Shown: positions 27,549-63,470, numbered from the whole stretch's first letter. The stretch is DNA of 63,470 bases, filler included, from Hausera hauseri (GCA_046269625.1; 12 parts of 12 records of this genome joined end to end with filler, not necessarily neighbours in it); one strand, 5' to 3'. Translations and numbers: made by a program. The notes: generated from the letters alone by a model not told the origin.

Positions 27549-27559
27549 CATTCAATTTG

Positions 27560-28480: not shown

Positions 28481-28529
28481 TTTTATTTCGAATAATGTCG
28501 TCGATTTTGGAATTTGTTTTTGGACATGT

Positions 28530-37301: not shown

Positions 37302-38029
37302 TGGCAAACGCTTTCTCAATCGTTTAAATGAAAACTGATTTGGAAATCAATGAGTTGTTAAATTAGTTTTAGAAACAAATAAATTGAAATACATCAGAAA
37401 TAATTAAATACAGAAATAAATTGAAATTTGTAAATTTTTTGATTATAACCGTGTGGGGTTCTGTAGACAGGGATCGGATTCGCCCCGATATATTCTGTAT
37501 ATATATTTTGTACATCTATATGTTTTTGTTTTAATATCGCGGTAACGCGAAATGAAAAGTTGAAAATTTTTTGAAGTTAAAAATATATTTTTACTTCCCT
37601 CGAAAGCAATTTTGTTTTTCACGATTTTGACCAAATGGGTAGACAAAAATTGAAACTAGTTTTTAAAATACAATGTATTCCGGCTATTATACAGAAATTT
37701 TATGCTATGCAATTGGTGCCTCTGGAAATATCAAAGTCGTTTTCCATGCACCCAAAAATGCAGGTTAAACCTGACATTATTATACTTTTCGCTAATAGTT
37801 TTAAGAACTCTTCGGCCGCTGAAATCAACAATGCAGTTGGAGATTTCGGCTGATGGCGGAACGAGGTTATACGGACATTTTTAATGATGCCTATTCTGGA
37901 GTATTATTAGAGTTTGATGTTGGTTGAATATCGATGTCGTTTGAGTTTGGTTTTCACTCTTTCGTCCTCATGTTTTCATTAAAGTCATTTATCTGAATGT
38001 GTAGACGCACCCACCACGGAATGAATTTT

Positions 38030-38744: not shown

Positions 38745-41700
38745 TACGTATATGGGCAGAAAATTATCATTGTCACCGATTATAAAGCCGTCACAACTTT
38801 GAAAGGCCGCGAAAATAACCCAACATGTAGGCTTAACAGAGGGATTGAAGAAATTTCTAGATATAATATCGAATTTCAATATAAGCCAGGAAATAAACAT
38901 ATAGATGCCACTGCCTTATCAAGATTAAGGACTAAAACAAGTGCGATTACAATAATGAAGAAAAGTCAGCTGGAAGAAATAATTCATCGCCAACGCGCCT
39001 TGACGATGGATAAAGCAATCAGAATCTCAACGGAACAAAAAAGGATGAAGTTATCCAGCAGATTGTAGAATTTGCCAAAAAGAATATCATACCCAAAGGA
39101 TGACAGTTAAAGAAACATTTATACATTCATGGACACAAATATTGCGTCATGAACAGTAAGGGCGATGAGGATATTTTATATTACGAACAAAAAGGAAAGA
39201 AATTAATAGTTATCCCAAAGAATTTACAAACCGAAGTGTTAACTTCAGAACATGATTTATATTTGGCCGGACATATGTCCTGGAAGAAAACATTAGAAAG
39301 AGTAATGAATAAATATTTTTTGTCTAGTATCTACATTGATGTAAAAAATTGGGTAAATGCCTGCGAAGTATGTGCAACTAAACAAAAGAAGACGAAAAAT
39401 TATATGGCAGAATTAAAACCAATTTATGTGCCCTGTAGACCTGTGCAGTCCATGCCTATGGACATTTTAGGACCCCTTCCTACAACTCACAAGAACAATA
39501 AATACATCTTAACCTGTATCGATCGATTAACTCATTTTGTTGAATTGATAGCATTAATTGATCAGAAGGCGGAAACCTTAGCAGAAGCCGTAGTAAGAAA
39601 AATTATTTGTCGATACGGACCTCCAGACCAAATACTCACCGATAGAGGAAGAAATTTCACCAGCGAACTATTCGAGAAAATCACCAAAATTTTCAAAGTC
39701 GAACGACTAACAACTACCGCATATCATCCTCAGTGCAACGGAATGGTCGAACAAATGAATGCCACCGTCATACGCATATTATCAACAGTAGTTATCAAAA
39801 GGATTGGGACGAGTTTTTAGAGGGGACAATTTTCAATTAACACCACACTACATCCATCAATAGGATTCACTCCATTTTTCATGATGTATGGACGTGAAGC
39901 CTCATTACACACGGACTTAGGAATGACGCCATACAAGGTTAATCCTGAATAATTAGAACAAAACTTCGCAGAAGTCTTACAAACGCGGTTGCGGAAATGT
40001 TGGGAAATCGCAAAAGAATTATCCCAAGAATACCAAGTGCAGTTTAAAAAGCAATATGATAAGAAAGCAAAACCGCATGATATAGAACAATGGAACTGGG
40101 TTTATGTGCATTACCAAGTAGCTAAAAAGGCTACTTCATTAAAGTTGACCCGCACGGGTAGAGGACCGTACAAAGTTACCAGGGTGACGCCAACAGCAGT
40201 ATATATTAACAAAAATGGAAAAGATGAAGTTGTGTCAATACAAAGAGTTGTTAAGACGGAGATACGACCCAATAAACGTTACAAACTACGTCCGCATGAA
40301 ATAAAAACTTTGTCAATAATTGCTAGACCAATATCGTACGTTCAAATAGTTTTGGCATTATGAGTAATTGCTTCCTATATTCCAAGAACACAAGCTGAAT
40401 GGAGGCATGAAAAACATATAATAAAGGTAAAGCGGAAAAGACACCGAAGGTCGAAGAAAGTCAAAGATTATTACAATCAATTCAGATCGTCTTAGATGAG
40501 ATGATGACCAAAGAAACAAGGAATTGCGATTTCGAACCGAGAGATTATATGCAATTTTGTGACATAGACTTCGGACAAATTTACAACCTCACTTATCAAT
40601 TATACCTGCCATGCTTATATAAGATCTATGAAATAAAACCGCAATTTCAATTAGTCATTACGGCGAGGAATAAACATCATGGAATAAAGCTTGACTACGT
40701 GATACGATCTACTAATCCGGACATTAAGTTCTTAGACGAAAATATACAGAAAATTGTTGTGAATCAGGGAAAACAATGTATTCAGGTATATGCCAGGAAA
40801 GATCTACCCATCAATCGAGAAATCAGCATCACGTTTGAGTCGGAAATTGGACCAACTCTAAGAATAAAATATTGTGCTATTCGCGCTGCTATGTAACATA
40901 CGTGTTGTAATATACCCGTAAACGAAAGATTCAAAATAAGATTTGACTTATATAAAATACGACCTAACCAATCAAGTATACAATTACGAATTTACTATAC
41001 AGAAAGTAAAATCTGGAAAATATTAATAGAAACCACGACTAAGAACACACCTAAAGCAGAGTTAAGAGAAATACCCATCAAATTTTCGGCTCACCGATAT
41101 AAAATCGTGTTCTTTGTGGAAGAGAAACAACCATACGATATACACATAAGTTGTCGGACAACATATAATAATAAAATTGTAAAAATAAACAAAAACACAT
41201 CAAACAGAGTGAAATTTATTACAACCAAAATCCGCGTACATAGTACAAGTGCATGAGCAGGACAAACAAACTCAAACGATGACACTGCACACCTTATACG
41301 AAATTTATGCAAAAATACATACACAAGAAAATGCAGGCGAAGAGACTACGACGACGATTGTTACTCAAGCACAGTTAGGACTAACCACATTACCAATCAT
41401 ATCGATTACGGTACTATCAACGTTTGTTCTCATTATATTAATTGCGATTTTACGATTAGTCGCCAAAAATTGTTGTTCTAAGCGCCCTAAAAATTCAGAA
41501 TGGGAACTAAGGGAACCGGGAGACCCTATTGATCCATATGACAAAATAACCTGCCAGTTACAGAACGGGTTATTCTGCCATTTGATAAAAAATTGGTTTA
41601 ATTTTAAAAATGACCTTTATTTTAAGAATAATTCATATTATTTATTCCTCAAAATCGAAAACAGTGGAATGTCCGAACAAAGTAGAATCGAAGAACGAGA

Positions 41701-42891
41701 AGGAGGAAACAGTTCCACCTTTCGAGTTAGTGTCGACGAATTTTTTCAGTGCTATGCTACTGTCCTCCTTATAAATTCAAATTCGATTTATCGAGAAATA
41801 CATAACAAGCTGCATGGAAGGGCCATCATAAAATACGACCAGGTCCACGCCATACCCAATAACTTAAAAAGAACGACCGAGGAAGATAGAATCGTCTATC
41901 TCTACGCTATGAGGGAAGATCGTGATGTGAGAGCATATTCGCTTAGATATTTAATAAATTTCGAAATCGGTCAAGATGTGTACATTTATTTAGCAGATGG
42001 TGAGATTTATTACAGATTACAAAGTCAAGAATGGATTACACAAAAAGGAAGACAGTACAGGTTTAGCATCCTAAAGATTCGAGGCGAAGACTTTCAAGGT
42101 AAGGAATTGGAATTCAGAGTCGCTGCTATTCAAGTCAAAATAATGATTGAAGTAACAAAAGAGGAAAAGAGAAAAAACATGTTACCACCCCTAGAATTTC
42201 GGCATAGACCTTTAGAAGCGGAAGTAATAAAATCCTTGTACTCCTATAGATTGGTACCCCACACTAGGAACACTAAAATTATTGCTGTGAGCTGTGGTGA
42301 AGGAAATGAAGCAGACAAAATTCCGATGGAAATTTCAATCAGGGAAACAGACGGAACGGAATTATATCGTACAATAATTAGCCCGAGAAAACGGATCAGA
42401 GAGACTTTCTTTAACCAAACAGAAATCCGTAAAGAAAACTTGAAAAAAGGAAAAGATATCAAGAAGGTACAAAATGAACTGGCCCATTGTTTACATGGTT
42501 GTATCCTTATCGGGTATCGAATAGAAGAAATTATATCATTGCTAGAAATTCTTTATTGAGGAATAGCAGGAATAAGAGAACTTAATACGCATCCACTTAT
42601 CGCCGAGAAAACAAAAAATTATTACGAGATAGAAACTACCCGATGCCAAGAATTATGGACGCTTAATTTAAAATAATGACAGAAGCAACAATCAATAGTC
42701 GGACTAAAATTAGCAAAATGTTGACAGCATGTCAACGTACTCAATACCTGCGAGATACTTACGCCGGATTATCCTGGGAACAAAAATGGGTACCCAAAAA
42801 CCCCGAGTATAACTTAATTCGTGCCGCAAACCCAAATCAAACTGATGCGAAATATCGTAAACAATATCAACCCTACAAAACATTCGAAACT
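38745..42891 (+). mobile_element. Large Gypsy-type element, copy B (RH end - IN - ectodomain - TM - exonuclease-like)
   Basis: IN HDLYLAGH...CEVC, MDILGPLP, ILTDRGRNFTS, NGMVE, GRGPYKV; then ISYVQIVLAL*VIASY; TM ITVLSTFVLIILIAILRLV; exonuclease-like domain at 42270-42600. Confidence 0.9.
41249..42559 (+). pseudogene. 436-codon open segment: Thr-rich stalk, TM helix, unknown domain, DEDDh-like domain
   Basis: EETTTTIVT...PIISITVLSTFVLIILIAILRLVAKNCC...IIAVSCGEG...EISIRETDGTELYRTIISPRKRIRETFFNQTEIRKENLKKG...LHGCILIGYRI. Confidence 0.7.
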
Positions 42892-42991: not shown

Positions 42992-44260
42992 GCTAAACCG
43001 TATAATCCACAGTCCTTCTTACTGCAGTCGGAACCGGGTTGAGTGCTTGTAGTGAGTTTTTCTACCGGTCCGTGCATTGATGAACCGTGTATGTGTCGTT
43101 CCAATAGTCGTGCACTTTTTCGATTTCGAAATTTTATGATACAAATTAAAATAAAAATAATAATCACCACAAGAGCAACCAGGCCAATTAAAATTTTCAT
43201 CGTCAGAAATAGTGTATGTGTATCGATTATTGGTTTCTGTTGGTTTTAGCAGCACTATGAGTAGTTTCTTTGTTGTCTGATATGTGAATGGATGGATTTG
43301 CGGCTTTTGATGAATGTGGCGGTGTTGATGTGCATATCGTTTTCGCATCATGATTTGTCGAATCTTTAGACAGATACAAATTAACTGATTTGGTAAACAA
43401 ACGTTTGCGATTAGTGCACTTTTCTGAACTGTAAAGTTGTAACTCAAACTGACCGGATCGTGCGTGTTGCTTTGGGTTGTAAACAAATTTTCAAATATTT
43501 GGAATTTCAATGTGTTTAGGGTTATCATCAACTAATGTCAAATAAAGATCGACGTGTTCAACATTTTCAAAATAAATCGAATGCTCATCGCTGAATACGA
43601 GAACAACATTCAAATAGCTACTCTCGTGTTTTGAAAGCGCTTAATGGGAATGGATAAGAATTCGTCGAAAATTTGGAAAGAGTTTGCTGAACGATTGTGT
43701 GATATTGAGAATACTGATACACGAAACTTTCATGTCGGTCAAACGAACAACTTCATTTGTCACCGATATTCTATCAAGAGTTAATTTCTCTTTATGAGCA
43801 TTAATGATGGATATGTCGGTAACACCTTCTTGAACAGAACTGAGGATAAAATAATTGTTTTTCAATTCCGCATTTAAGATGCAATTCGAATAGTTGATAT
43901 TGTGGTTCGATAGATATGATGTAAAGTTTAGTAAAGGATGATTATTTCGCTCGTTTTGGCCGAAGTAAACTTTGTGTTGATTGATACTTTCTTGGACTGA
44001 TCTTCCCACAAAGTGACATTTGACAATCTGATAAACTGTTCATATCCTTGTCCATTTCTTTTGACGGCGGACCCATCGGATACTGGTCTCAAAGATTTAG
44101 TGGAGAGCAGCAATTTCCAGTTTTCTGCAGCCCTATGTTCCACGGGATATTCATATAATTTCCACCATGTCAGCATTGTAAAAATAATATTCCAGTTCGG
44201 TAATCGATTCGTAAACACAAAATGTACTGCTACGTCTGCAGATGAAATCCGAGCATGAAT
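42992..44260 (-). pseudogene. Fragmented coding-like region ending in a type-I TM segment; product unknown
   Basis: Chain of overlapping minus-strand ORFs; ILIGLVALVVIIIFILICIIKFRNRK is a hydrophobic helix with a basic stop-transfer sequence. Confidence 0.4.
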
Positions 44261-44279
44261 GTCAGGCCATTTTGTCGAA

Positions 44280-47200
44280 ATTTTTTTGAATTATTTCGAA
44301 GCGGAAGATCCGGGGCACGCTTATTGGCCCGACGCGGCGGCTACAGAGGCCCGGCCGTGCCCAACCAAATGGGTCAAAGGGCACCGGCCGCTGTGGGCAC
44401 CACATCAACCCCCACGTGACAAAGTGAAAACTATAAAGATTAAAACAGACGAAAAAAACAAGCGCTAAACGAAAATGTGTATGTGTCAGTCGGTCTTAGT
44501 GTGGATTAGACGTTGGGTGCCTTCTAATGATTTTTCCTGCTATACTTGCTTAATGTGACTCTGCGTGTTTTGTCTTTATGGTGTGTGTTTTCTTGCAGAG
44601 GTTGAAGTTGGGGAAAAAATTGTCGGATTTTGTTGTGAGTGTTGTGTTGTGCGAAGACGAGACAGAACGAAGAGAAGAAGAAAGTGAAGGAGGAAAAGAG
44701 ATTGTTGAAGACGGATGGTTAAAGGTATTCAAGAGAATGTTAGAAGACGGAGGAATGATAAAAGGTGTAATGGCGGATAAAGGAAGAGAGAAAAAAGTTG
44801 TAGTAGAAGTTGGAATTGAATGTGTGAAAGAGTGGAAGTGAAAGATGAAACAGAGGTAGTGGTAGAGAGAGGAAGAGAGAGAAGAAAGTTGCGAAGCGGA
44901 AGTAAAAGGGGTAAAAGGCGATGTGTGAGGAGAAAGGGGGAAGAAAGCGCCGAAGATAAGGAAGGTATGGAAAGAGAAGAGGAGAGAGATAAAACGGCGA
45001 AAAGGTACAAAACGGAAGATAGCAAGAAGATGGAGAAGGCGAAGAATAGTAGTATGAAAGTGGTGTGCAAGAGGTTGGAATGATGAAAGCGGTGGATAGA
45101 GAGATTGATGAAGTCGAAGTGGTGTTTGATTGAGGAAGTACTGTAAAAGGAGAAAGCAGGTAGTTATGAGAGGATGAAAGAGGTGTGAAAAGACTTGAAG
45201 ATGCAAAATCGGGTGGGGAAAGAAAGGCTGAATTGTCAGAAGAAATTGAAGAAGTTTTGGGAGAAAACGTAGGGTAAAGTGGATTAAAAAATTGAACATA
45301 GATGGATGGTGCATTGTTGGATTGCTGCAAGTCGTGTAGGGATGTTGGTGGAAAAGTGGTTTTCGATGGGAGACGTGTCATCAATAAAGAAAGCCGTTTT
45401 AGCGTTGTTGATGTATACTGTTACTTCTTTGTCGTCTTTGAGGATGATGATGTTGTGGGAGTGTAAGCGAATTACTTTGTAAGGGTCGACATAATGAGAT
45501 TGAAAACCACATAGCGTCTGATTTTTTCGCCATACGAATTTTCCAGTATATAAATCTCCGTGTATGTAAGGTTTATTGCCGTGTAATAGTTTACAAAAGG
45601 AGTTTTGATGATCTCAACGAAGTGTCTCTGTGCCGCTTGTATGGTTTTATCTGTAGGAATATTGTCCAGCTCAGCCAGTTCGAATAATTATATAATAAAA
45701 GTGCCAAATAATGCTTCTGCAGGCAAACAGCCTGTAAAATTAGATGGTGTGTTGTGCCAGCCAAGAAGAACGTACGGAAGGAATGTTGTCCAGTTGCGAT
45801 TTGACTCAGCAAGAATTTTGAGAGACGTTTTCATCGTGCGGTGAAAGCGTTCAAGAAGGCCATTTGACTGGGGATGATATGGTGACGTGTAAATGTGGTT
45901 AATTCCCAATCGATTGACAAGAGTTTTAAACAGGTTGGATTCAAACTGTGGACCTTGGTCCGAAATGATGTGGCGAGGTGATCCAAACTTGCTGATCCAA
46001 GTGCGGATAAAAACGTCTGCGATTGTTTCTGTTTTGGTGCTCCGAAGCGGGACAGCCTCTGACCATCGCAAGGAACAATCCATCATTGTAAGGATGAACT
46101 GATGGCCGTTGTCTAAGGGTAGTGGGCCTACGAGTTCAATGTGCACAGATTCAAAACAAGACGTGCAGGGAAAATGATATAGTGGTGGCTTTTAGTGCTT
46201 AGTAGCTTTGTATTTTTGGCATGTTACACACTGCCTAACCCATGCCTGCATGTCAGAGCGCATCGACGGCCATACTTCTTGGCGTTGAAGAAGTCGAAAA
46301 GTGACCTTGGCACCGGGATTATGCAACGAATGAATGTTGTTGAATGCTTCTTTTTGAAGCGATTCAGAAAGGATGACTTTAGGATTATTAGGTTTGGAAG
46401 TGTCAAAGGCCACACCGTCGATAATTTTGCACGATTTAAAAGATTTAAGGATGTCAGGAGGTGGCTGGTTCTGTTGAAGTTTGGATTGATGGAAAATTGG
46501 TGTAAAACCAATCGAGCTGACTGATCGAGACAAAAGGTCAGCTAATAAATTATCGACTCCGTTTAGGTGCTTAATTACAATATCAAATGTAAACAAATAC
46601 GATATTTGCCTCTCCTGACGTGGTGAAGGAGATTTCATGGTGAGAATTTGAAGCAAGGGCTTGTAGTCCGTTTGTATTGTAAAAGTTCGTGCAGTTAGTA
46701 GATGTTTAAAGTGTTTTACGGCAAGGACCATTGCAAGCAACTCTCGGTCAAAAGTGGAATATCTTTGCTCTCTTGCTGCGAATTGTTGAGAAAAGAATTC
46801 CAGGGGCTCATGGGATCCATTTTTGACTTGATGGAGGACAGTACCTGCAGCTGTTGTAAATGCGTCGGTGGTTAAGAGGAGTTCTGCATGGGAGTCTGGA
46901 TAGGCCAGGATTTCTACGGTTTTTTAATTGTCTTTGAGGTGATCGAGAGCGTTGACTAGCTTGGCAGTCCATTAAATAAGCTGTTTTTCTTGCCACAACT
47001 TAGTGAAGCATATGGAGCGATTAGAGTGGAGCAGTGTGAAACATACTTATGAATAAAGTGCAAAATTCCGAGGAAAGAACGCATTTGTGTTGATAAACGT
47101 GGTAGTTGTATGTTTTAGAGCTGTGTGATGCGGTCTGGCTGAGGTGAATGTCCGGAGGAGCTAATAACATGTTCTAGGAAGTTGACCTTATGTTGAAAAA

Positions 47201-48554
47201 AGGAGCATTTGTTGAAATTAATTTCCAAATTGTTTTGGTGCAAGCGCTGGAAGATTAGACGTAAGTGTTTGGAGTGCTGTTTCGAGGAAGATGATGCAAT
47301 TAGGATATCATCAATATAGAAGTAGGCAAAGTCTAAGCCTAATAGGACTGTATTAATATGCCTTTGGAAGGTCTGGAAAGTGCTACGGAGTCCAAGAGGC
47401 ATGAAGAGGTATTCGAAAAGGCCGGAAGGTGTAATGACAGCCGTTTTCGGAATGTCTGCTGGGGCCACCGGAATTTGGTGGTATGCTTTGTGCAAATCAA
47501 TGCAAGAAAACATGGCGGAACCATGGAGCCTGTGAAGGATGTCGTTGATTAATCGCAGAGGTTAGGCATCCATTATTGTTATAGTGTCGAATTCGCGGTA
47601 ATCACCGCATGGGCGAAAGTTACCATCTTTTTTGGAACCATATGTAGTGGTGAAAACCAAGGGGATTTGGATCTTCTGATTATTCCTGATTTTACCAGTT
47701 CGAGAAACTCAGCCTCCACTGCCTGTCTGCGGCGAGGCGACTGTGGGCGGACGTTTTTGACGTATTGGTCTTTGATATGCTGTTACTATGTGATAGAAGG
47801 TGGATTTAGGTGGTACGAATGAATTGTCCTTTTGTGACAAACGAGTGCAGGAAGGCGAAACATTGCTGTATGTCAGAGGGCAAAGATGAAAAGTTTTCAG
47901 ATGGTCTCGATGCATCGTGAATGGATGCAGTTGAAGTATGAGTTGTAGACGAGGTGTTGTGACAAAGTGGTATTAGGTGCAGGATGTTTGTGTTGAAGAT
48001 AGTGTTGGCAAATGTACTATCAGTAATGAGTGCCACGCAGTTGGTAATATCGTATTTGTCACCGTAATAAAAATTTCAAAATAATGAGTGAGTATAAAAA
48101 TAATTCAAATCGAGAGTCATTTTTTTCAGTAATGACTTCCTGGCAGCGGTCATCCGGGCGGTCACCGAAATTCTGTTAATTTTATTATTATTTCCATTCT
48201 TTAAGGAACATCGTTTGCAGTCCACAAGTAAATAATAGTGGGACAGAAAGTCTGAACCGAATATAGGTGTGCGTACATTGGCTACTGTGAATTTTCAGGT
48301 GAATGTGTTTGTGAAATTTGGTAGGGTAAAAGTTAATTTAGTAATACCAAAACTTTGTAAAGATTCACCGGACGCAGCGACTAGTTGATGTTAAAAGCAA
48401 AATTGTTTTGGATGTTCTGTATTGGTGGTAGTAAAGAGACTGCTGCGCCGGTGTCTATGAGCAAATTAATGTTTTGCTTTATTGGAGTGACGACTGCTGC
48501 TTTCAACGTGAATACAGCAAAAGAAATGTGTCGGCCAGCTTTTTTAGATTGTTG
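44280..48554 (-). mobile_element. CsRN1-clade Gypsy, copy 2 (PR-RT-RH-IN, S/T/P-rich tail, PPT at 44409-44413, LTR starting at 44404)
   Basis: LLIDTGAAVS, FRPCGDYR, IDLHKAYHQIP, FYIDDIL, TFDRELLA, HIELVGPLP, SDQGPQFES, NGLLERFHR. Confidence 0.88.
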
Positions 48555-51409
48555 NNNNNNNNNNNNNNNNNNNNNNNNNNNNNNNNNNNNNNNNNNNNTT
48601 AATTAATTAANNNNNNNNNNNNNNNNNNNNNNNNNNNNNNNNNNNNNNNNNNNNGTGTTATACCGTAAGATTTCCTCAATCCATTTGTCAAGTCTCCATG
48701 TCGTATTATTCGCTTGTCTTTTCAAGGTTGTAACAGCCTTGTGATCGGTAATAATTTTAATTTTCTGTCCGTAAACGTAAATGTTAAAATATTGTATTAT
48801 TTCTTTTACCGCTTATGTTTCTAGTTCTCTCACTGCATAATTCTTTTCGGCCTTCTTTAGTGATCGTCCTCCATAAGTGATCGTATGCTGTAATTCTTCA
48901 CCATCCAGTTTTTGGACTACTTCATAGCCAATTCCTTCTTTACTAGCGTCAATTTTAATTATGAATGGCAGACTAAAATCAGGGTACCTCAAGACTGAAA
49001 ACTTGTTTAAAATTTCTCCATTTCATTAAGTCTTCTGTTCGACACCTGCCATTTCCACTTAATTCCCGTTTTGAGTAGACAATACAAGGGTGCGTTTATT
49101 TCCGAATCTCCTGGCATAATATCATGATATCTGGCATAATATAAGTGGTATAATATCCGCATAAGCCTAATTAATGTCTCAGCTCTTCTTGGTTTTGTGG
49201 TTCATATAATCTGATATCTTATTTAATAATGATTTATCAGGTTTGGTTCCTGCTTCTCCAACTAAATGTTCGAGATAGGATACTGCGTTCTGAGCCCATT
49301 TATATTTAGAATTTAGCTTTAATCCAGCTTGTTCCAATCTCATGAGTGTACCTTCAATGTCCCTTAAATGTCCGTCTACCGTTTTCGACGCAATAAAGAC
49401 GTCGTTCAAATAGGCGAACGCGTGCTCTAGTCCCATTAGCATTTTGTTCATCATCCGGGTAAAGATGCCTGGTCCGGCAGTTATCCCAAATGGCATAACA
49501 TTAAATTCGTATATACCGCCGTGTGTCTTAAAGGCTGTCTTGTAGAGATCTTCCTCTTCTATCTCTACTTGCCAATATCCAGGTTGTAGATCGAGCGTGG
49601 TAAACCATTTAGCTCCCGAAACTCTGTCCAAAAATTCCTTTACTGATGGTAACGGAAAAGAGTCCTTCATCATAAGTGTATTTAATGCTCGATAATCGAT
49701 ACAAAACCGGTGTTTACTGGTGCCTTTCTTCTTAACCATAAGTATAGGCAAGTACCAAGGTCAGTAGATTGGTCTAATTATGTCGGCCCTTAACATCCGT
49801 TCAAGTTTCTTAGTTATCTCTGGCCTTAGCGAATGTGGAGGCGGATACCATTTCGGCATCTTTTGATCCTCTACGTCTATTTCGTCGTTCAATCCAGGCT
49901 TTTTCTTAAGCTGAATCGTGAGCTTTAAAGTTTCGGCTCGGCCAATATCTTCTTCGTCTCTCGCGATAATTAAACTATAACGACAGAGCAATTCGTAAAA
50001 TCGACAATATGATTCTAGTGAAAACTTAGTCTTCACGTGGGGCGGAAATTCGGCACTCTTATATGGTTTCTCTTCGACAGTGATTGACGATACTGTACAT
50101 GTGTGTCCCAAAGTGGTAATGGGGTACAATTTAATCGGGTTTGGTGCATTATTGGCTATTCTGATTGGCACACGGCCTGTCGATACTCTTGACAAAATAT
50201 TACTGAGTACGAGGTTTGGGTCGAGTGATTGTTTTGGTTTGAAATATACTGGCTGATCGTCATCTTGACGTATCTAAACATATATTAGGATTTCTGTTCT
50301 GGGTGGTATGGTTTCATCCACTGGAATCCACACTTCTCCAAATTTTGTATCTTTCGTGGTTTTAACACTTTTATTTGGCCAAATTCTATCAACTTGCCTG
50401 CATTGAAATCGATTGCTATATTGGGTAATTATCTCAGTAAGTCACATCCTAACACTACATCATCTGTTAATTGCTCAATTACCGAGAATTCATGACGAAA
50501 AGATTGTATCATTATGTGGATTTGTGGTTTCTATTGGAATTTACTTTTTGAGGATTGTCCGAAAGCTCCGATGCTTCCTGGGTCGGTCGTAGGAGGTGGA
50601 TATAATTGTTTTTGTAAGAATTGCTGTATCGAATCATATTTTATCAGTGATATTTCAGATCATGTATCTATTAGTGCATAAACTTCCCAATCTTTCAGTT
50701 GAATCTTTGCGAAGGACCTGCCTTTAATTACTGTACCGTAATAGTTGGGTGCTATCTTGGGTTGTCGTATGGTAGACACTTTGTAACCGTTGATGGTAAC
50801 TTCAGTGGTTCCAACTGGCTGTTCGACTAATTGTCTTAACTCTCCAATTGGGTATAATGCGTTATTCGTTTCATTCGCGTTTTCTACTCGATGGTTTCTA
50901 ACTGGCGGCTGAATATCTGAGGTTCGAAGATTTCGTGCTTTATGGCTTCGAGTAAATATCGATCGCATTTCGTTTGCCTTAGGTATTATGGGCGAGTAAA
51001 TTATACCGTGGTCGTTGACTGCTGATCTATGGTGTGGAGCCAAGGTTTTCTCTGTTTTGTGAATCTCACGCAATATCTCATAGCGTTTTGTTCCTTCGTA
51101 AGGGTCCTCTAAACTAAACAGCTTCCGATAGATGTCTGTCTGGCATGAACTTATAGAATGTTTCTCGCAATTTTCATATATAGGCGCCGTTGGCGGCAAT
51201 ATTGATAATAGTAGTTTCATAACAGAGTAATTTTTGTGCCTGCTCGGCCTAAAGAGGACGTCTCCTCCCTTAGGCTCTTCATCATCCGAATGATTTCTTT
51301 GTGTCTTAGCATTTATAAATTTTTGCCTGTAGTCGAATATACCTCTGTTTCGTTTTCGATTATGGTAACCAACATGTCGTTCTACATTTGCCTTCCATTT
51401 ACTCTCTTT

Positions 51410-53125
51410 ATAAGCCTTTAAAAACTTGCCGAGAGTAGTGATAATAGCCGTTAAAGTTTTGCACGAAAATCCTGTCAAGGTAAATATCTTATATCCATTT
51501 ATGATTGCCTGAATTATAGCTTTTACCAGTTGATTTTAAAAATATATCGCTAGAAATCCTGACGCGGCTTGTCCGAATATTAGGAATCTTCCCCAAATTG
51601 TATACAATATTTCTGTAGTTACCTTCTTATAATAGCCAACATTAAGTAAAAACTCCCATTTCGCCTGGTGGCGCGAGTCCTCTAATATTGTATGTATTGC
51701 TCTGTTTAATTCATGATTACGTTAACGGGGAAAAGCGAGAAATTGTCTAAACGCCGTTCGGTAGACTTACCCAGTCGGTCTCGCTCAGTCTAAACATTGG
51801 CTCTCCTAAGCTAGTTTTGCAATAGCTCAAAATTGTCGGTTGAGTAGCGTTTGCCAACAACACTCTGGTAATCGGTGTTACTAATCTGGGTACGTCCTGA
51901 TATATCATTGGAAGTTCTTGTATACACCTGTTCTCTTTCACGTTGATTGGTACGTCTTTCTTCTCACACTCATACGTCAATAAAACTTCTCCAGTTACTC
52001 GTCCAAAACACCTTCCTTCATCGGAATTATTGGTGATGCCAACTCAGGATTTGCATATATCAGAGCTAGTTTAGTTTTCATAATTTCCAAGTCCAATTTA
52101 AATTCGTTTGTTATCATCTTGTGGTATAACTCGGCTATTCCGGCTTGTCCTTTATAGTAGAAGTAGTCGTCTTTGTTCTTTAAGTAGTCTTTAATCCGGA
52201 TTTCCTGAGTCTCGAGTTTGTACGTTCTGGCATTTATTTCTGCCTCGGCTACGAAAAATGCTTCGTAGTTGGTGGCATACATTATGACGTCACATCTGCT
52301 GAGCATTGCTTTCATCACAAATTTTAATCCATGAGTATCAGAAATCAGTATAGTAGATGTGGACTGTTCGGCTACATCTTCTCGTGTCTTAGAGTTAGTT
52401 TCTATACTACTTATGTATCGTTTGCCTGTCGTCTCATTAAATTTAAGCTCTTTAATTCTGATAAAGCTGCAATCAGTCTTTGTTGGAGGTTCCCAAATTA
52501 CTACAGAACTTCAAAACGGGCATGCGCCATCCTGAATGTGACACTTGTGATTCTCGGTGTAAAATTTAGTAACACTATGAAACATCACTTTCTGTATACG
52601 CATTTCGGTTTCGTAAAAATCCACTACCACGACGTTTGATTTTGATCCCTTTCCGGTATCGTATTCCGCACCATAACAATGTCCGGCGTGCATGTCCAGC
52701 CTTCCTGCTGCTATTTTATACATTCCGATTATACTCCCTTGTTGCATTTCCAGTTCCATACCGTCCCTTTTTATTCTCCCCGTTTCTCTAGCTTGCTTAC
52801 AATGCTGACGTTCTAAATTTATTGGAATTAGTGGAGTTGTCGGCTTGATTATTGACGATTGTCCATATACCAGTCCACAATGGAAAATGCTGCGAGAACG
52901 CGGCAACATACATTCTACTCCATCGAAGGTAACTAGGTCGCCTTGTTGATATAATACATAAATTTTTTCTTTTGTTTCTAATCTGTGCGGCCTCGCATCT
53001 TTGCACATTTTTAAGTCCATTAACGAATATTTTTTGCCCAATCTAAATTTGTCACAGTCGTATACTGTAACTGCGCCCATTTGTCTTATCAACATCATCA
53101 TGGTCAGAAAGTTTATTAGCCTGTT
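51410..53125 (-). pseudogene. Chuvirus-type (class III-like) envelope glycoprotein with an internal signal peptide and C-terminal TM
   Basis: RLINFLTMMMLIRQMGA|VTVYDC...YSLMDLKMC...VEC...IFHCG...C...TG...AAG...HCYGAEY...NVVVV...C....GAC...W...C...GEVLLTYEC...CIQELP...PITRVL...IWGRFLIFGQAASGFLAIY...IINGY; Cys spacing and motifs match chuvirus G. Confidence 0.85.
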
Positions 53126-53825
53126 CGAATCGTTTCCTCTGCGATTTCCAGTAACATCTCGCAGCAGATATCCGAATCTGTTGTTATCAAAGAAGAATCT
53201 ATTGTGATGCTCTTCTTTTTCAAATAGCTTTGTCCAGTCTACTTCTCGGGCAGTTTCCTGGCAGCCTTCCTTGCCAAGCTAGTAACCTTGTTAAATTCAT
53301 TTTCTCGATTCGGATCGGTTTTGATGGCCAAATATAGCAACACTTTTCTCAGTTCCTCTATGGTATTTTCTACCATCATTTTATCGCTTAAAGTACTTTT
53401 GGTTGATTTACACCAAAGGTTCTTCATGGCCTTTGCGGCGTTCGCTATGGCCTTCTCTTTCTCGTCTAATATATCACCACCGAGATTAGAGTGGTTTACT
53501 ATTCGTATCAAATTTGTTATAAGTTCGTTCAGGTCCTCATTATTCGCATTAAAGTTTGGTATGAACATCTGCTTCAATTCCCTAATTAAATCTCCATTAT
53601 AATCGATCTCTTCCCGCATTTTCCGTGGTCGACCGACAGGACGCTTTTGTTTTGTTATAGCAGGTACACGGCCATGGGGGGTACTAAATTTTTATCGTAT
53701 TGTTCATTATCTTCGTCTGTCTACAGGTATTCTAAATATACTGCAGCATCTCGGACCCCTATTATTCGTCCTACTTGTTGTTCGGCTTTAGCCTTCCTTA
53801 TAGCTTTATCCTTAGTCTCGTTGAT

Positions 53826-54050
53826 AGTAATGGTTACCGTGACCCGGTTCACCTTGCCTGGAATAATTCCGACTTCTATTAATAATTCCGTCTCATCTAG
53901 TATCCTTCCTCGGAAATAAAGTCTATAGCTCAGCTCATGGGCGTATCCGTTATTCTTTATCTACAGTAATACATCCTTTGCAAGGGAGCGCGTAGTAAAC
54001 TCTTGTTTCTTCTTGTCCATCCAGTTTGATGCTATTTTTACTGGAATCGT
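53826..54050 (-). other. Ubiquitin-like domain (one in-frame TAG)
   Basis: IPVKIASNWMDKKKQEFTTRSLAKDVLL*IKNNGYAHELSYRLYFRGRILDETELLIEVGIIPGKVNRVTVTI fits the Ubl RLIFxGKxLxDxxxLxxxGI motif. Confidence 0.6.
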
Positions 54051-56039
54051 CTCTTCTGCTTTTGATTTTAGGATTTTGGCATATTCTTTGAGTAAAAGCT
54101 TAGGTGCTGTACTAAGGATCGTACCTTCGCTAGCTAATTTAGTTAGAGTGGGGACTAACCGTCTTAATTGACTTTCAGTGAGATTTACCTCGATCAACTG
54201 AGTTAAATCTTTCTCGGTTTATGCTGGGTCCAAAATCATTCCTACATCGAACCTTTTGTACGGAGAATACATCTCCANNNNNNNNNNNNNNNNNNNNNNN
54301 NNNNNNNNNNNNNNNNNNNNNTTAATTAATTAANNNNNNNNNNNNNNNNNNNNNNNNNNNNNNNNNNNNNNNNNNNNTTGTAAAACGTCCCTGAACTATA
54401 ATATAAAAACAAAGAACGACCCAGCAGAAACAGTTTTTACGAATGAATTGTCTGATTTATTAGATAAATTATTTCCTGATGACTCAGTCGATAATTCTTA
54501 TGATTCAGGTGAAGTTCAGACATTACCGAATCCTTTGGCATATGGTAATTACTGGCAACATCCATTGATCACGCCAGTTACCGAGATTCTGGATCACCAT
54601 TCTGATTCACAAGATCTCAAAATATTGCTAGAATTTGAGTAAAGAAGCCATGCATATTGAATAAATTAAAGCTTACTACCGCTTCCAGGTTTTCAACCGC
54701 GACACACACACAATACATAACAGGGGGAATTACATGTAGGATTGAAATTTGTTGGTAATACAAATGAAAGAAAACGATAATGTGTGTCTTTCACTCCGTG
54801 TGTTTTTCTGTGCCGTTCTCGCGATTTCTTCTTGGATAATGGCTATAGAAGTCGCGATGTGGTGTCTGATTTCTGTGCAACGTCACCAAATGGCTAAACC
54901 ATTACATTCAAATTTCAGTAAATGTTGTCGCATCCTTCTCACTGATGTATTCACTATATTAGCGTGATATCGTTGTTATAACACCGTATCACTGAGCAGT
55001 TAATTCTTGTGCATGAGCTTTGAAAGTCCTAAGAAGAACTGCGGCAGACATAGCTGAGCTTTCCTGCCATCTCAGTGGTGCCTAGGAGGTGAACCGAGGT
55101 CCTCCTAGTGGCTATGCCTTTCTCGGCTTCCTAGAAGCGATCCAACACTCAACTCAACAGGGGATAATCTCCAGCCACCCCCCGTTAGCCCGTAGAATTC
55201 CATTTCGTTGCCTAGGAAACACGACGATGACGGGCGAAGGTCTTCGCTGACTTTTGAGCTGTCTTCCCTAAGTTATCGCTGTGTAATAGGGTCAGCTAGA
55301 AGCCGGCGAGGGCCCTTATTGCATCTCTGTCTCCTGTCGACTGTGTAAAATTACTACACTTTAGAGATTATTTCAAGTAATACAATTTGTATGTGTGTGC
55401 GGCAACACATTTTAAAAATTTATAGACATATAAAGGGTCAACATGTAGAGAGACTAAAACTTTCTTGTAAATTGTTGTACCTGCATTTGTAAGAGCTATG
55501 TCACTATCGTTAAAAACCACTGTTTTAATAGCCTTTGTGGTGTGACGGGTATGAATGATTTTTATGCTTTGGTTGTTAGTACTGAAAAAAGGAAGGTAAC
55601 GTAAACGTTGTGCTTAGGACAGAAGATGGCCATAACTATTGGGAGCCATCTCTAGCCACAACTGGCTGGTAGATTCCCCATTGCCTGTGAGTCATCACGG
55701 GAAGGATGGCAGTGGTCTTATCTGACCATAGGGTGTCATGCTCAGAGCCTTCACAGCCCCACAGGCTCCCACGAGATTGGTAAAATTAAATAAAAAACGA
55801 ACAGTGATTGTTGCAAAGAAATAAAATAAACAAAAGCAAAGAAACCCAAATAATGTTTTATATTAGATACATCGAAGTAATTATGGTGATTTTAAAGATG
55901 ACTGTGTTTTACCTGTCAGTGATGATTTAGCTTTTATAATGATATTATATGTAATTACATCTTATATAATTTAGGTTTTTCATTATCATACCGCTAAAGA
56001 GATAATAAATGATTTATATAAATTTTACACGTTATTCAT

Positions 56040-56390: not shown

Positions 56391-56637
56391 AATGAAACAC
56401 TAAGTGGGCTTAGCAGATGTGAATGATGCTCTGTCTGTACGCGAGCTAATCCCTTGTTCCATAGACTTGCTCTTTCTAGCCACAACAAACGCGCCCATCT
56501 CCTCATTGATAAATCTTATTCCACACTCTGCTGTGGCACTCAATGCATTACGGATATGGTGAATCACTGACTCCTCAATATTGCTTTCAATTGAAATGTG
56601 TTAAATACTGACATACACCTCCGTCTCCGAGTCGTAG

Positions 56638-59005
56638 CTTACTTAACTTATCCGTGCCACCCCTCATCATGAGCCCCCAACCTTTCCTGTCCTATACATT
56701 TCTTCCTGACTGGTTTCAGGTGTAGCCAAACATTTTTGTCTCTGCCTCTAAGTTTCTGCGCCAGATATTTCGTGGTCTTCCTACATTCCTGTTTCCCTTG
56801 TGTAGGGGGTTTTCGCAGTATATGTCCTATCCATCTCCAGTGTCCTCTTGCAGTATCTTCGTCAACTGGGTATTGGTTTGTTTACCGCCAGAGGTCAGGC
56901 TTACTGATACCGCCAGGCCAGTAAATATTTAGTATCCTTCTCAAACAGGTATTTATGAAGGGCTTCAGTTTCCTTGTGATCTTCGCTTTTATTTTCCACG
57001 TTTCTGCTCCATACAGCAGGACAGCTTTCACGTTGCTGTACGTATTTTAGTTTGAACTGTTAAATGTTTAGATTTCCATATGTTCTTCATTAATGCAAAT
57101 GCGTGTCTAGCTTTTCCTATTCCTGGTTTTACATCGTCTTCTGTACGCCCCCCCCCCCACCCCCCGGCTATGACTCATGCTGCCCAGATAAGTAAATGAT
57201 TTTACATCTTCCAATATTCAGCCTATCAGTATAATTGGGGCATTTGTAGCTCTGTTTATTTTGAGAACTTTAGTTTTTTTTTCCCTCTGTGTAAGTTTAA
57301 ACCAAGTTAAGATGTTATGTTTGCCATTCTATCTGGTTTTTTTTCTTGCGTAATCAATAAAGTGAACATATAAGGGAGAACTGCATTCTAGAGACTGTTC
57401 TACAATAATGCGCACTGTTGCAATCTGGTCTAAACAAGATCTGTCTTTGCGGAAACCAGCTTGTTGATCAGGAGTTGTATATCAAAGGCGTCCCTTATTT
57501 TATTTAGGATTATATTGTTTAAATCCTTTCTCGGTATAGACAGCAGGGTGATTCCTCCATAGTTTGCACAGTCTCCAACGTCTCCTTTCCGCGGAATTCA
57601 TAAAGAGGGGGTATAGTATATCTACTGTAGTACTCGTATCTGCCTTAAGTGCTTCAGCTGGGATGTTGTTAGGTCTTGGTGTATTATGGTTCTTTAGTTG
57701 CTGAATTGTTTTCTGGATTTCCTCTTTTGTAGGTTTTTCACATGACATGGGTAAGTCCACTTCAGCTGAATTTCTGGTGGGTTTTTTTTGTTTTTTAAAT
57801 TGGTCTGTTAATATTTGCTTGTAGTCTTCCATCAATCTTTCCATTTGTTTTCTTAACCCTAAAATCTGTTTTCTTTCTCTCTTTGGTCTCATATTTCTTA
57901 GTTCCCAATATTTATTTGCAAGTTAATGTAAATGTTTCTTTAATTTTGTTCCATCTGTTATCTACTGAGTCTTCTGCCTATAATAATTCTTCAGTATATG
58001 GGATTTAGTTATGAGAGTAATTTTATCTTCTTCGAATTTTTGCGTATCATTTGGATACTGGATATTGGACTCCTGGCTTGGTACTTGATCTTTTATCCAT
58101 TTTCTTTTTAGTTTCCGTTTTGCCACTACTAAATGGTGGTCTGAGGCTACATTTGCTCTCCCTTTTAACCCTCACACTTTTAAGGTCGTCCTGAATCGTT
58201 TGTTAATACAAATGTGGTCGATCTGGTTTTCTGTTCTATGATCCGGTGACACCCAGGTTGCTTTGTGTATTCGTTTGTGAAGAGAAACAGTACCTACTAT
58301 AACGACGTAATTTAATGCACAGAAGTTTACAAAACTGTCTCCATTTTCGTTTATTGTCCCAAGTCCATTGCAACCCATTATGTCTCCGTATCCCTTATTA
58401 TCATCTCCAATTTTTGCATTCAGATCACCCATTATGATGTTAACATCGCTCGTTGGACATTTTTTGTACACAGAGTCCAGCTTGCAATAGAAATCTTCTT
58501 TGGTTGTTTCTTCGCTATTATTTGTTGGTGCAAAACACTGGATCACATTCATGTTGATTCACATTCATGTTGATTTTCTTTTTCTTTGTGCGAAAGGACA
58601 AATTCTTGGACCATTTTCTTCCCATCCAATGAGCACTTTCTGTGTTGGTCTTGATAGCATCAATGCTACTCCTTGGGTATGCGGTGAATTTTCTTCTTCA
58701 TGACCTAAGTATATAATTCATTCTCCTGAGTTCAGTCTCCTCTGCCCTGGACCTGTCCACGTTGTTTCACAAATTCCTTGTATATTTATATTATAGTTAT
58801 TTATTTCCTTTGCCACGCGCTGTTTTTCCTGTCTCATACATTCCATGTTCCTATATACATGATTGCCCTTGTTGAGAGATTGATGGTTGGTCTGTTGGCT
58901 TCCAGAATCTTCTGGCTTTCACCACCAAGCGTCATACTGCTTCCAGGAGAAGCCCCATCCCTTCCCAGGGCGGTAGGTTCTTGAGTTCTTTTCGACGTTT
59001 TCGTA
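56638..59005 (-). mobile_element. RTE-clade LINE (APE + RT, internally deleted)
   Basis: IGTWNV, TQGVALML, QCFAPTN, MGDLNAKIG, HKATWVSPDHRTENQIDHICIN, ASDHHLV, QQAGFRKDRSCLDQI; 3' tail TAAGTTAAGTAAG. Confidence 0.9.
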
Positions 59006-59399
59006 NNNNNNNNNNNNNNNNNNNNNNNNNNNNNNNNNNNNNNNNNNNNTTAATTAATTAANNNNNNNNNNNNNNNNNNNNNNNNNNNNNNNNNNNNNNN
59101 NNNNNGAATCATTTAATTTGTTGAGAAATTCATGGAAAAAGTGAAACATAAGACAATTACAAACTCATAAGTCAAAGTAAGTTAAAATGTGTATACACCA
59201 GTAGATGGAAGGGAGGACACTAGGCCAATCCCCAAGATTGATCATCAATATTCAATAATCAATTTTTTTAATTTTTGAATTTTCAAAGTGCACTATTGAT
59301 TTTAGCACTTGGAAAGTGTGCAGCACTATTTGGTGCAAATTTCGAAAATTTTCGAAAAAATAAAAAATGTGTATTTTTGAATTCTATACACGATGGTAT

Positions 59400-62300
59400 T
59401 GTTCGAAAAAAATTTTTGAAAAAATTTGTTTCGAACTCGAATATCTTTTCACACGGAAGCACGGTCTCGTTGGGCACAACATCACCCCCTTCGTGGCTAA
59501 GTTAAAAACGATAAGGATGGAATAACTGAAAATCGCGAAGTAGACAGTGTGACTTGGTTATTCAATTTTAGTCTAAACCAGACGTTGTATACTTTCGATA
59601 TTTCTCTCCTTTCTGTACTTTCTAAAAGTGACAGTTTTGTAATATATCTTTTTGCTTTTGTCTCCGTTTGTTGAAATGCTTTGGAAGGAAATATGTCACA
59701 ATCTGTCGCGTTAAAGGTAGTGTCTTGCTGAAGCAATCTAGGAGAGGGAAAAGTAGTGATCGAAGGTGGATGTTTGAAATTGTCGAACGGAGTTCCCAAA
59801 GATAAGGTGTTGGACTGAAGAGTAGTAATGGGTGAAAAAGCGGGAGGAGAAAATGGAGTAGTGGTAGGGATAGGAATAGTAGGTGAAGTGGATGTGTGAA
59901 CAAAAACAGGAACAGGAGAAAATGGAGTAGCAGTAGAGTCAGGAGCAGAAACAAAAGGAAATGTAGGACTTAGAAAATTTGTCGAAGCTTCAGTTGGAGA
60001 GGTGTCGTCTACAAAAAGGGCAGGTTTCACATTATTTATATGGACTGCTAGTTCCTTTAGAAAAAAAATATAGCGTTGTGAAAATGTAGTTAAATTAGCT
60101 TATAAGGTCCTAGATACTGCAGTTGAAAACCAAACGGTGTTTGATTCCGTAGCCAAACGAACTTTGCAGAATACAAATCGTCAGATAAATACGCTTTATT
60201 GTTTTGTAGTATTCTACAGAACGAATCTTTACTGACCATGATGAAATGGTCCTGTGCTGCTCTGATCGTTTCGTCTGTAAGTATATTATCTAAGGCGGTT
60301 AATTCGAACAAGGAGCGAACAGGTGTTCCAAATAAGGCTTCAGTAGGTGAGCATCCTGTGGAAGTGGACGGAGTGTTTCGCCAGCCGAGCAGGGCGAACG
60401 GAAGAAGTGTGGTCCAATTGGTGTTTGACTGCGCCAGGATTCGAAGTGATGTTTTCAAGGTTCGGTGGAAACGTTCGACCAGGCCATTTGATTGGGGATG
60501 ATATGGTGTAGTATGAATATGACTTATACCTAATCGGTTGACTAGGGATTTAAACAGATTTGATTTGAATTGAGAGCCTTGATCCGAGATGATGTAACGA
60601 GGGGATCCGAATCTACTAATCCACGTACGGATGAAAGTATCGGCTATTGTGTCAGTGTTTGTGCTCCGCAGTAGAACGGCTTCCGGCCATCGTGAGGCAC
60701 GGTCCATCATGGTCAGAATAAATTGGTGGCCGTTGCATATTCGAAGAGGAGCGATGATATCAATATGTACAGTTTCAAAACGTGATGTGCATGGAAAGTG
60801 GTATAAAGGAAGTTTTAGATGTTTTATTGTTTTATATTTTTGACAAGGCACGTATTCTTTAACCCATGCTTGCACATCGGAGCGCATGATTGACCACACT
60901 ACTTGTCGTTGAAGTAAACAAAAAGTTGCTTTGGCACCAGGATGATGTAACAAATGTACATTATGGAATGCTTGTTTGTGTAAAGATGGAGCAAGAATTA
61001 TTTTGTATTGTCCTGGTTTGGAAGTATCTAAGGCCACGCCGTCGATTATCTGCTAAGATTTGAACGATTTGAGAATATTTTGCGATGGCTGATTTTCCTG
61101 GAGCCTTGTCTGAGTGAAGATTGGAGAAAAATTTATCGAACCGACTGATCTGGATAGAAAATGGGCAATTAGATTGTCAACACCCTCGATATGTTTGATT
61201 TCAAAGTTGAATGTGGACAAATGTGAAATTTGCCCTTCTTGTCGTGTTGAAGGGTGTTTCATTGCCATTATATTAATCAACAGCTTGTGATCCATCTGTA
61301 TAACAAAATGGCGGGCTGTAAGTAAATGAGAAAAATGTCTTAAAGCAAGGACTATTGCCAACAGTTCCCGATCGAAAGTTGAATATCTACTTTCTGGTGG
61401 CGTTAATTTTCGGTAAAAAAAATTCTAGGAGTTGATTTTTCCTTTGTACAGCTGGTGTTATGCAGCACCTACTGCAATGTTTGATGCATCTGTAGTTAAA
61501 ATTAACTCGGCGTCTGGTTTAGGAAATGCTAGAATTTCGACAATCTTTAGTCATTTTCGTAGTCTATCGAATTTATTGACTAGTTGTGGTGTCTACACGA
61601 TTTTCTGGTGTTTTTTCCTCCGCTTAAATGTGCAAAAGGTGTCGTGAGTTCCGAACCATATGGTATATATTTGTGGACGAAATTCAGAGTACCGAGAAAA
61701 CTGCGAATTTCTGTTGTTGTCTTAGGTAGTTGGACATTTTTAAGAAACTCGATTCGATCAGACTGAGGTAAGTGGCCGTTTGAAGAGATAATATGTCCGA
61801 GGAGATTAACGCGCTTTTGAAAGAAGTTAAATTTCGCGAAATTGATCTGTAGGTTGAACTGATTAAGTCGTTTGAAAATGGATGGTAGGTATTCCTCGTG
61901 TTGTTTAACTGATGAAGAGGCAACCAACATATCATCAATATATGGATGCTCAAAGGTGAAATCTGAAAGTATTGAATCGATGTGTCGCTGAAAAGTCTGA
62001 GAGGCATTCCGGAGACCGAAAGACATATATAAATACTCATAAAGACTGAGAAGTGTGGCAATTGCAGTTTTCTCGATGTCTTCCGGTGCGACAGGAATTT
62101 GGTGGTAAGCTTTGGCTAAATCGATTGTCGAATAAACTAAAGTAGTATTAAGCCGATGTAATATGTCTTTGATTAATGGTAGTGGATATGCGTCCATTGT
62201 GGTTAAAGTATTAAGTTGGCGGTAGTCGCCGCATGGTCGGAAGGATCCATCCTTTTTTACAATGTTGAGAGGTGAAGACCATGGTGATTTAGATCTGCGG

Positions 62301-63470
62301 ACGATACCTGTTTGTTCGAGTTCCATAAACTCAGCTTCTACTGCTTGTCTACGTCGCGGTGACAATGGACGGACCTTTTGTATAATTGGCCTTTGATGTC
62401 TTGTAATTATATGGTGGAAAATGCTGTTTACTGGAGTAAAATTCCTATCTTTCTGAAGTATACGAGGACAAGAAGTATGGACGAATTGTTGTAAACTTGC
62501 GGGTAGTTTCTGAAATGACGTAACTGGCGATGAACCAAGGTTGCTAGCAGTACTTGGTATATGGAGATTGGTTGTTGATGAGGAATCGAGTGGAGTTTGG
62601 AGTAGGATGGTTGGGTCCGGAACCGTGTTTGAATAGGTGTTATTGTTCAATGATTTTAAAGAAAATACCAGATTGTCGATGTCGACATTGAGCTGTGATT
62701 GGCTGTCGACATTGTCCTTCAGAAGCTTACGATGTAAAACGTAATAGTTATTGGAATTATAACGAGGTACTGACTGTTTTAAAATAGACTGCTTACTTAC
62801 TATTAACTGTGGTGTTGTTGAGATGCTGTCTATACCTGTGCTACGGTCTGCAGGTGTATTCGATTTTACGCAGCGTCGGTTACAATCGACTAGCAAATTA
62901 TAGTGCGAAAGGAAATCTGAGCCAAGTATTGCCGTCTGGACGTTAGCGATTGTAAACATCCAATGAAATGAAGAAGAAAAGTTTGGTAGAGTGAAAGATA
63001 ATTTGCAAGTTTCGGAAATACGGAGAGATTGACCAGAGGCAGTGTATAAAGGTTTTATTTTAGGTGAAGAATGCTGAACTGGAAAAGAAAGTGGTAATAG
63101 TGAGATCGCTGCGCCAGTATCGATGAGAAAATCAATGGATTGAATGTTAGGATTAGAGATAGCAGCTTTTAGTGTGACGACTGCAAATAAAGTGTGTCGG
63201 CCAAAGGAATTGGATAAATTTCCTTTGCCAGGATCTTTCGATAATACTGGCGGCGAAATAAGTTTTTTTTGGATTGGTAAGTTAAAACGGTTACTGTTAG
63301 AGACGGTGGGACATCTATCAGTGGTGTAGTTTTTGGTAATTTTATAGTTACAGCCGGAAATACAATTTTGAGCATTAGATCCGAACTTTGCATGATAGAT
63401 GCAAATTATGTTATCCGAGTGTAGATTTGATGAATAATATCTACACCCTAAACAGCACTTATTTGCTGTG
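59400..63470 (-). mobile_element. CsRN1-clade Gypsy, copy 3 (gag end-PR-RT-RH-IN, S/T/P-rich tail, PPT at 59485-59491, LTR starting at 59481)
   Basis: CIYHAKFGSNAQNCISGC, FLIDTGAAIS, SPWSSPL, FRPCGDYR, PYIDDML, TTDASN, TFDRELLA, SDQGSQF, NGLVERFHR, YLGPYKL. Confidence 0.9.

Follow-up and report, generated by a model that had tools for sequence, protein, structure and literature searches.

Why would a retrotransposon carry a viral fusion glycoprotein directly ahead of its protease, and where does such an arrangement leave Gag and the delivery of Pol? The layout breaks the textbook rule by which Pol enters particles as Gag-Pol and Env is made from a separate spliced message, and a single open reading frame obliges the three proteins Gag, Env, and Pol to be made in equal amounts. 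The stretch of DNA analyzed here (the window; 63,470 nucleotides from Hausera hauseri, GCA_046269625.1) consists of 12 separate pieces, with spacers of N and a fixed 12-mer between them. Copy C, the subject of this study, occupies the minus strand of piece 48655-54277, its upstream sequence stopping at 54277. Copy A, on the plus strand of piece 6060-14588, is 79% identical to copy C over 3.1 kb (blastn, 3109 nt; copy A 6060-9385), and copy B (38745-42891), 68% identical to copy A over 1660 nt of the integrase region (blastn), is a more distant member of the family.

The in-frame join between the glycoprotein (G) and the protease is real. On the minus strand, the frame from 51535 to 50663 runs for 291 codons without a stop, against 21 stops in each of the other two frames, and the chance of such a stop-free run, estimated from base composition, is about 2e-9. 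This bears out the original prediction of a chuvirus-type glycoprotein fused in frame upstream of the protease, for which a stop-free reading frame at 50660-51478 had been claimed; the open frame is in fact a little longer, extending to 51535. It closes at a stop (50662-50660) that falls inside the protease catalytic motif, directly after VYALIDT (50683-50663). Copy A had been said to show the same adjacency, ruling out a one-off nested insertion, and its protease site does share a frame with the end of G, two intervening frameshifts (6716 and 7041) offsetting each other. Of the joins between G and the reverse transcriptase (RT), each is preserved in frame by copy A, copy C, or both.

Both copies are dead. 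Stops interrupt copy C at 52513, 51724, 51538, 50662, 50533, and 50431; its frame changes near 52004, and relative to copy A it has lost 116 nt near 51756. Copy A has stops of its own, and N replaces the catalytic D of its protease. The family is abundant, with 12,572 contigs of one public run mapping onto the copy C piece and covering all 30 bins; the contigs are short, and the run is possibly the source of the window. Among the 10 best-supported length differences listed for this run, none lies within 50400-52000 and several coincide with frame changes of copy C, so that those breaks are not family-wide. No RNA run carrying the element was found among the sequencing runs listed.

What kind of protein is G? 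Five stop-free pieces match PF24664 (Monjiviricetes_fusion) in order, at profile positions 5-206, 244-362, 371-444, 522-559, and 562-608 of 653, the first piece being the only one to pass the curated cut-off alone. These pieces delineate an ectodomain of the Monjiviricetes type at 51602-53071 (minus strand), broken by stops, the frame change, and the deletion; positions 5-608 are thus covered with gaps, in keeping with the view that G is nearly full length. Directly before the ectodomain, a hydropathy peak at 53072-53119 (minus strand) indicates an internal, signal-peptide-like stretch, and each of the 18 rows printed likewise has a hydrophobic stretch ahead of (Y/F)DC, the conserved beginning of G. 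At the other end, the region 51410-51601 (minus strand) contains the predicted membrane anchor and a second hydrophobic stretch, as judged from hydropathy and from PF24664 positions 522-608. The predicted anchor (about 51601-51500) has one stop inside; compared by eye, it matches the most strongly hydrophobic helix in relatives and in a virus G. The sequence first quoted as the transmembrane region, TGFSCKTLTAIITTLGKFL, is the second hydrophobic stretch, and the likely anchor lies some 30 codons earlier, by eye against relatives and a virus G. A second hydrophobic stretch after the anchor is visible in free virus G proteins too, the tails of which are taken to be cytoplasmic.

A HMMER search with the N-terminal G piece returned 38 matches at E<=1e-3, 14 of them at <=1e-10; many long retroelement polyproteins are among the best matches (1e-22 to 1e-12), and the glycoprotein of Wenzhou crab virus 2 matches at 3.7e-5. 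A tree built on the N-terminal half of G places copy C among 17 retroelement rows (100/99) and outside the two virus G rows; its branch is long (2.16), which leaves its exact place unsure. By these profile and sequence matches, G is a member of the chuvirus/mononegavirus fusion-glycoprotein family. The expected similarity to chuvirus G therefore stands at the level of the PF24664 family match, but the nearest relatives are retroelement Envs rather than chuviruses. This greater proximity to retroelement Envs marks G, on sequence comparison, as an old capture inherited within retroelements and not a freshly captured gene. A search of solved structures with the G profile returned no match below E 0.15 and no fusogen; the putative class III assignment draws on PF24664 and PMC13524379.

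Selection was assessed by comparing copies A and C. Pairwise dN/dS (Nei-Gojobori, codons with stops or gaps excluded, bootstrap intervals) was 0.18 (0.05-0.44; 44 codons) at the end of the G ectodomain and 0.38 (0.19-0.82; 101 codons) for the end of G plus the transmembrane region, both values covering the last part of G only, the portion common to the two copies. It was 0.41 (0.27-0.64; 221 codons) in the linker between G and protease and, within Pol, 0.23 for the protease, 0.18 for the spacer behind it, 0.14 for RT, and 0.10 for RNase H, whereas 16 shifted-frame controls gave 0.78-1.72. This comparison had been set in advance as a check on the prediction, and the ratio lies below 1 over the shared part of G, over the linker, and over Pol: the end of G, the linker, and Pol have been under past selection. 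Could a chuvirus G nevertheless have been inserted recently into a gypsy element, or adjoin it by chance, with the frame left open by accident? G does have a detectable chuvirus relative, and Pao elements in mosquitoes are known to capture chuvirus G (PMC7642597). Yet the same join recurs in two copies and in many distant relatives, both G and the linker show selection, the retroelement clade excludes the virus G rows, and a frame open by chance has the minute probability given above; we assign this scenario practically no weight.

What lies between G and the protease? The linker of copy C (50837-51409, minus strand) contains PTAP (51193-51182) and LYPIGEL (50857-50837). By the bounds used in the motif comparison it is 248 residues long, linkers of relatives being as short as 82-112. 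PTAP is kept in the tail of both copies, and in copy A the Y of the second motif is replaced by H. A hydrophobic-Y-P motif recurs in 13 of 14 linkers, where shuffles predict 1.35, at a distance of 31-87 residues ahead of the first motif of the protease. This count overstates independence because the pattern was widened after inspection of the data, the bounds of two linkers were drawn manually, and some rows are closely related. Two free virus G proteins also carry the motif close to their C-terminal ends. The linker looks like an expanded cytoplasmic tail of G, and the simplest reading of these motifs would be that a whole viral G including its tail was placed in the reading frame, with the protease after its old end. 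The kept tail-end motif may mark this fusion point and may serve as a budding signal; motifs of the PTAP and Y-P types recruit ESCRT in retroviruses.

These same motifs could be read differently, as traces of a short Gag hidden in the linker in an ENV-GAG-POL order, given that retroviruses keep late-domain-like motifs in Gag and that the linker of copy C is long and has been under selection. The linker, however, has no capsid profile match and no CCHC, and a word-based search of its reading frame against longer proteins returned nothing, itself weak evidence; moreover, the linkers of relatives shrink to the short lengths given above and end in the Y-P motif of free virus G tails. An ENV-GAG-POL order is reported for two mite species, but the mite elements bear an F-type Env (PMC13524379). 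We consider a Gag in this position very improbable and treat the linker as the likely tail of G.

Where, then, is Gag? A capsid profile found no match in the six frames of the window. At the upstream end of copy C, a helical and ubiquitin-like domain with one stop inside (53837-54230, minus strand) represents part of a Gag-to-Env spacer. A profile built from eight segments of seven relatives, window sequence excluded, matches copy C at 54230-53837 with an iE of 2e-12, the next best value in the window being 2.9. A profile combining the copy C module with three relative segments in turn matches ISG15 (E 2e-4) and other ubiquitin-like chains; ESM Atlas gave no usable match for a relative's ubiquitin-like module. 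In copy C the module and G lie in different frames. Between them, at 53242-53691 (minus strand), an AT-hook-like motif (53646-53620; Pfam AT_hook E 0.052, below cut-off) and a helical domain occupy the place where relatives carry a Bcl-2-like domain. The model of this reading frame is all helical at a pLDDT of 46, too low for a fold search; ESM Atlas gave no usable match for it, and in two attempts Bcl-2-like profiles from relatives did not score above 200 shuffles. The Bcl-2-like domain of the relatives matches Pfam Bcl-2 at E 1e-3 in P0004, and in the PDB search Bcl-xL chains rank first, at E 0.04 only.

The relatives place Gag upstream of G. We scanned 16 of the 38 G matches, chosen mostly by length, for domains: a protease follows G in the same protein in eight, four of which also contain RT, RNase H, and integrase; a Pfam zinc knuckle precedes G in three, and an integrase precedes it in none of the 16. 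In three further relatives of 3700-3771 residues, one reading frame encodes a capsid domain, then G, and the domains up to integrase; the DNA of L001 shows one of these three as a single frame of 3703 codons. A locus search with a single relative returned two loci, and no LTR pair was found in L001 or L002. The order in intact relatives is Gag, ubiquitin-like module, internal signal, G, transmembrane region, protease, RT, RNase H, and integrase, all in one reading frame; the segment between Gag and G comprises the helical and ubiquitin-like module and, in several, the Bcl-2-like domain. An ankyrin domain is present in P0040 only.

The original prediction placed G where Gag normally sits, and here it needs revision, as relatives have Gag upstream of G in the same reading frame and copy C keeps the spacer module. 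Replacement of Gag by G would imply either a Gag-less Env-Pol form or a separate upstream Gag reading frame, with the capsid borrowed in trans. The empty capsid search of the window is compatible with such a loss, as are several relatives: two of the longer ones start without a recognized Gag, P0020 has other sequence before G, and P0005, P0008, P0040, and P0012 begin shortly before it; some relatives have domains of another kind at this place. On the other hand, the piece holding copy C simply ends at 54277, the module at that end follows Gag in six relatives (P0002, P0003, P0007, P0045, P0046, and P0047), and the relatives lacking Gag are single predicted genes with unverified starts. Such relatives may be truncated or may represent forms in which Gag is absent or split off, but replacement of Gag in copy C strikes us as improbable. 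Given the position of Gag in relatives and the shared spacer module, the Gag of copy C most likely lies just beyond the end of the piece.

Downstream of the linker, Pol is of the Ty3/gypsy type. In copy C (minus strand), the aspartic protease (50380-50740) is recognized by Pfam RVP at E 0.017 with stops read as X and by tblastn to the protease region of P0040, its catalytic motif being broken by a stop. The protease-to-RT spacer (49765-50330) aligns with relatives and matches no Pfam family; its counterpart is called dUTPase-like in the planarian element Burro. RT and RNase H (48657-49760; RVT_1 E 2.6e-26, tblastn to relatives) are cut by the end of the piece. Copy A contains the end of G, linker, protease, RT, RNase H, and integrase at 6060-10750 (plus strand; blastn, tblastn, and matches to RVT_1, RT_RNaseH, and rve), followed at 12308-13770 (plus strand) by accessory remains, namely an exonuclease-like region (12308-12656; iE 3.5e-6 to a profile of RNase_T-like accessory reading frames from L001 and L002) and a RING finger (13633-13770; zf-RING_2 E 3.5e-6). 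Copy B (plus strand) comprises the end of RNase H, integrase, signal-like and transmembrane-like hydrophobic stretches behind it (about 40331 and 41396), and an exonuclease-like region (42302-42614; iE 1e-6). The best match in the window to a profile of the relatives' post-integrase ectodomain, at iE 0.1, is not significant. Taken across copies C, A, and B, the domains follow the Ty3/gypsy order RVP, RVT_1, RT_RNaseH, Integrase_H2C2, and rve, and no BEL/Pao-type Pfam family is among the window matches. The RT tree unites copies A and C with G-bearing polyproteins (99/99) and sets three further gypsy RTs from the window apart; neither this tree nor that of G includes a named Burro sequence. G and RT thus share their ancestry with the same group of polyproteins. 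We conclude with considerable confidence that copy C is a decayed Ty3/gypsy copy in which G is in frame with the protease and was probably preceded, within one long reading frame, by Gag and a ubiquitin-like module.

From this anatomy we infer a model for topology, cleavage, packaging, budding, and infectivity. Gag and the cargo domains would be made in the cytosol, until the internal signal directs G into the endoplasmic reticulum and signal peptidase severs G from Gag, which may retain the internal signal as a membrane anchor. The transmembrane region would stop transfer, returning the tail of G and all of Pol to the cytosol. Pol, parted from Gag during translation, could then not be packaged as Gag-Pol; instead, the Env tail would hold it at the budding membrane until its release by the element's own protease, which would lie about 60 residues past the old end of G, while PTAP and Y-P motifs within that tail may recruit host budding machinery. 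Tethering of Pol to the membrane by the Env tail, as the original prediction proposed, is a reasonable inference from the predicted order of signal, anchor, and protease. Should the second hydrophobic stretch also span the membrane, however, Pol would finish on the lumenal side, which would defeat the tethering model.

We suggest, more tentatively and at somewhat less than even confidence, that these elements may represent a separate line of enveloped reverse-transcribing viruses, in which an RNA-virus G was spliced in whole, from signal peptide to Y-P motif, signal peptidase cuts Gag off, Pol is packaged via the Env tail, and tail motifs drive budding with Pol attached. The layout has been in print since 2019, and the literature searched contained no functional test of topology or packaging. 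The packaging of Pol is the worthwhile question, and the conserved tail motif stands out as worth testing; dead and partial, copy C is a poor experimental entry point.

How does this locus compare with known systems? NERV (Sacco et al. 2022) reportedly has a continuous gag-env-pro-pol reading frame with an RNA-virus glycoprotein in a Metaviridae element; it is said to be restricted to nematodes, with cargo that differs from that of the present elements. The Anakin elements of mosquitoes show the same glycoprotein family on an LTR retrotransposon, but they are BEL/Pao elements with a chuvirus G (PMC7642597), whereas Pol of copies A and C has Ty3/gypsy-type domains and groups with gypsy-type polyproteins, and G of copy C is only distantly related to chuvirus G. 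Troyka elements were considered and rejected as a comparison, since they are described as encoding no envelope (PMC12440569). GAG-ENV-POL errantiviruses with an HSV/gB-type Env, reported from Platyhelminthes, Nematoda, and Bryozoa, share with copy C a Ty3/gypsy Pol and a gB/chuvirus-like Env before Pol (PMC13524379). This likeness was assessed by gene order, and those elements are intact, unlike copy C; by eye, the N-terminal half of G is closer to the Schmidtea rows than to the bryozoan and nematode rows shown (PMC13524379).

The planarian Burro/GYPSM1 elements, giant gypsy-like LTR retrotransposons published in 2019 with an in-frame gag-env-pol, offer a close parallel (PMC6431247). Their single reading frame is described as encoding Gag, ubiquitin/SUMO-like and BCL2-like motifs, env, protease, a spacer, RT, RNase H, and integrase, the env lying in frame between gag and pol and matching arthropod and fish mononegavirus glycoproteins (PMC6431247). 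Expression of Burro is reported upon PIWI knockdown (PMC8532177). Copy C differs in being decayed and partial, with its size and LTRs outside view, and it has one protease and a G tail that exceeds those of most relatives in length; MATH, BIR, and ankyrin domains were not seen in the window copies. The section on Burro in PMC6431247 makes no mention of a second membrane protein or an exonuclease/RING accessory gene. Copy C resembles Burro in its mononegavirus/chuvirus-type Env, in frame upstream of the protease, and in the ubiquitin-like domain upstream of Env, identified by the relatives' profile and by the ISG15 match. The layout is therefore already known, and to it the present locus adds one host genome and evidence of selection on the tail of G.

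In the intact relatives (the polyproteins P0005, P0007, P0040 and P0045–P0047, and the DNA locus L002), the open reading frame does not end at the integrase but goes on to encode an ectodomain with a second signal-like stretch before it and a transmembrane segment after it. This region corresponds to 10800–12000 (+) on the copy A side and to 40300–41450 (+) in copy B, where signal-like and transmembrane-like stretches follow the integrase; a post-integrase profile built from the relatives found no significant match in the window. A downstream accessory gene of two relatives, the loci L001 (12085–13473) and L002 (10617–12107), carries an RNase_T-like exonuclease domain, and remnants of this gene persist in copies A (12308–13770, +) and B (42302–42614, +), with a RING finger lying past the exonuclease-like remnant in copy A.

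Only a single protease-like domain is visible in copy C, whereas many relatives (P0002, P0005, P0008, P0012, P0040, P0045–P0047 and L002) carry several per polyprotein, reaching a maximum of seven Pfam protease-like stretches in P0040, and some of these extra domains are located after the integrase. P0007, a full G-Pol polyprotein, is entered at NCBI under a Flavobacteriaceae metagenome-assembled genome, which probably reflects animal DNA in a bacterial bin.

Compared pairwise over their whole overlap, copies A and C differ by a synonymous distance of 0.28–0.35 in the end of G and the linker; the value climbs to 0.5–0.8 from the protease through the spacer to RT, and to about 2 in RNase H. This rise may stem from recombination between lineages or from constraint on the RNA.

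The window also holds three mutually related ordinary gypsy copies, 63–66% alike (19088–23133, 42992–48554 and 59106–63470, all −), that fall outside the G-bearing clade, and an unrelated Gag-protease ORF of 958 codons that includes a proline-rich stretch (3–2879, −). Arrays of degenerate 75–150-nt repeat units with opposite strand skew occupy 15481–18696. At 33773–37346 (−), a glycogen debranching enzyme is encoded in a stop-free frame of 1039 codons and then onward in another frame; we regard this gene as intron-poor or retrocopied. At 56600–58600 (−), a weak match to an endonuclease domain points to a decayed non-LTR retrotransposon.

By eye, two pieces within 23234–33459 resemble decayed parts of a Polinton/Maverick. 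The region contains an integrase (Pfam rve, E = 2e-7), together with stretches that we take to be capsid-like, protease-like and protein-primed DNA polymerase-like.
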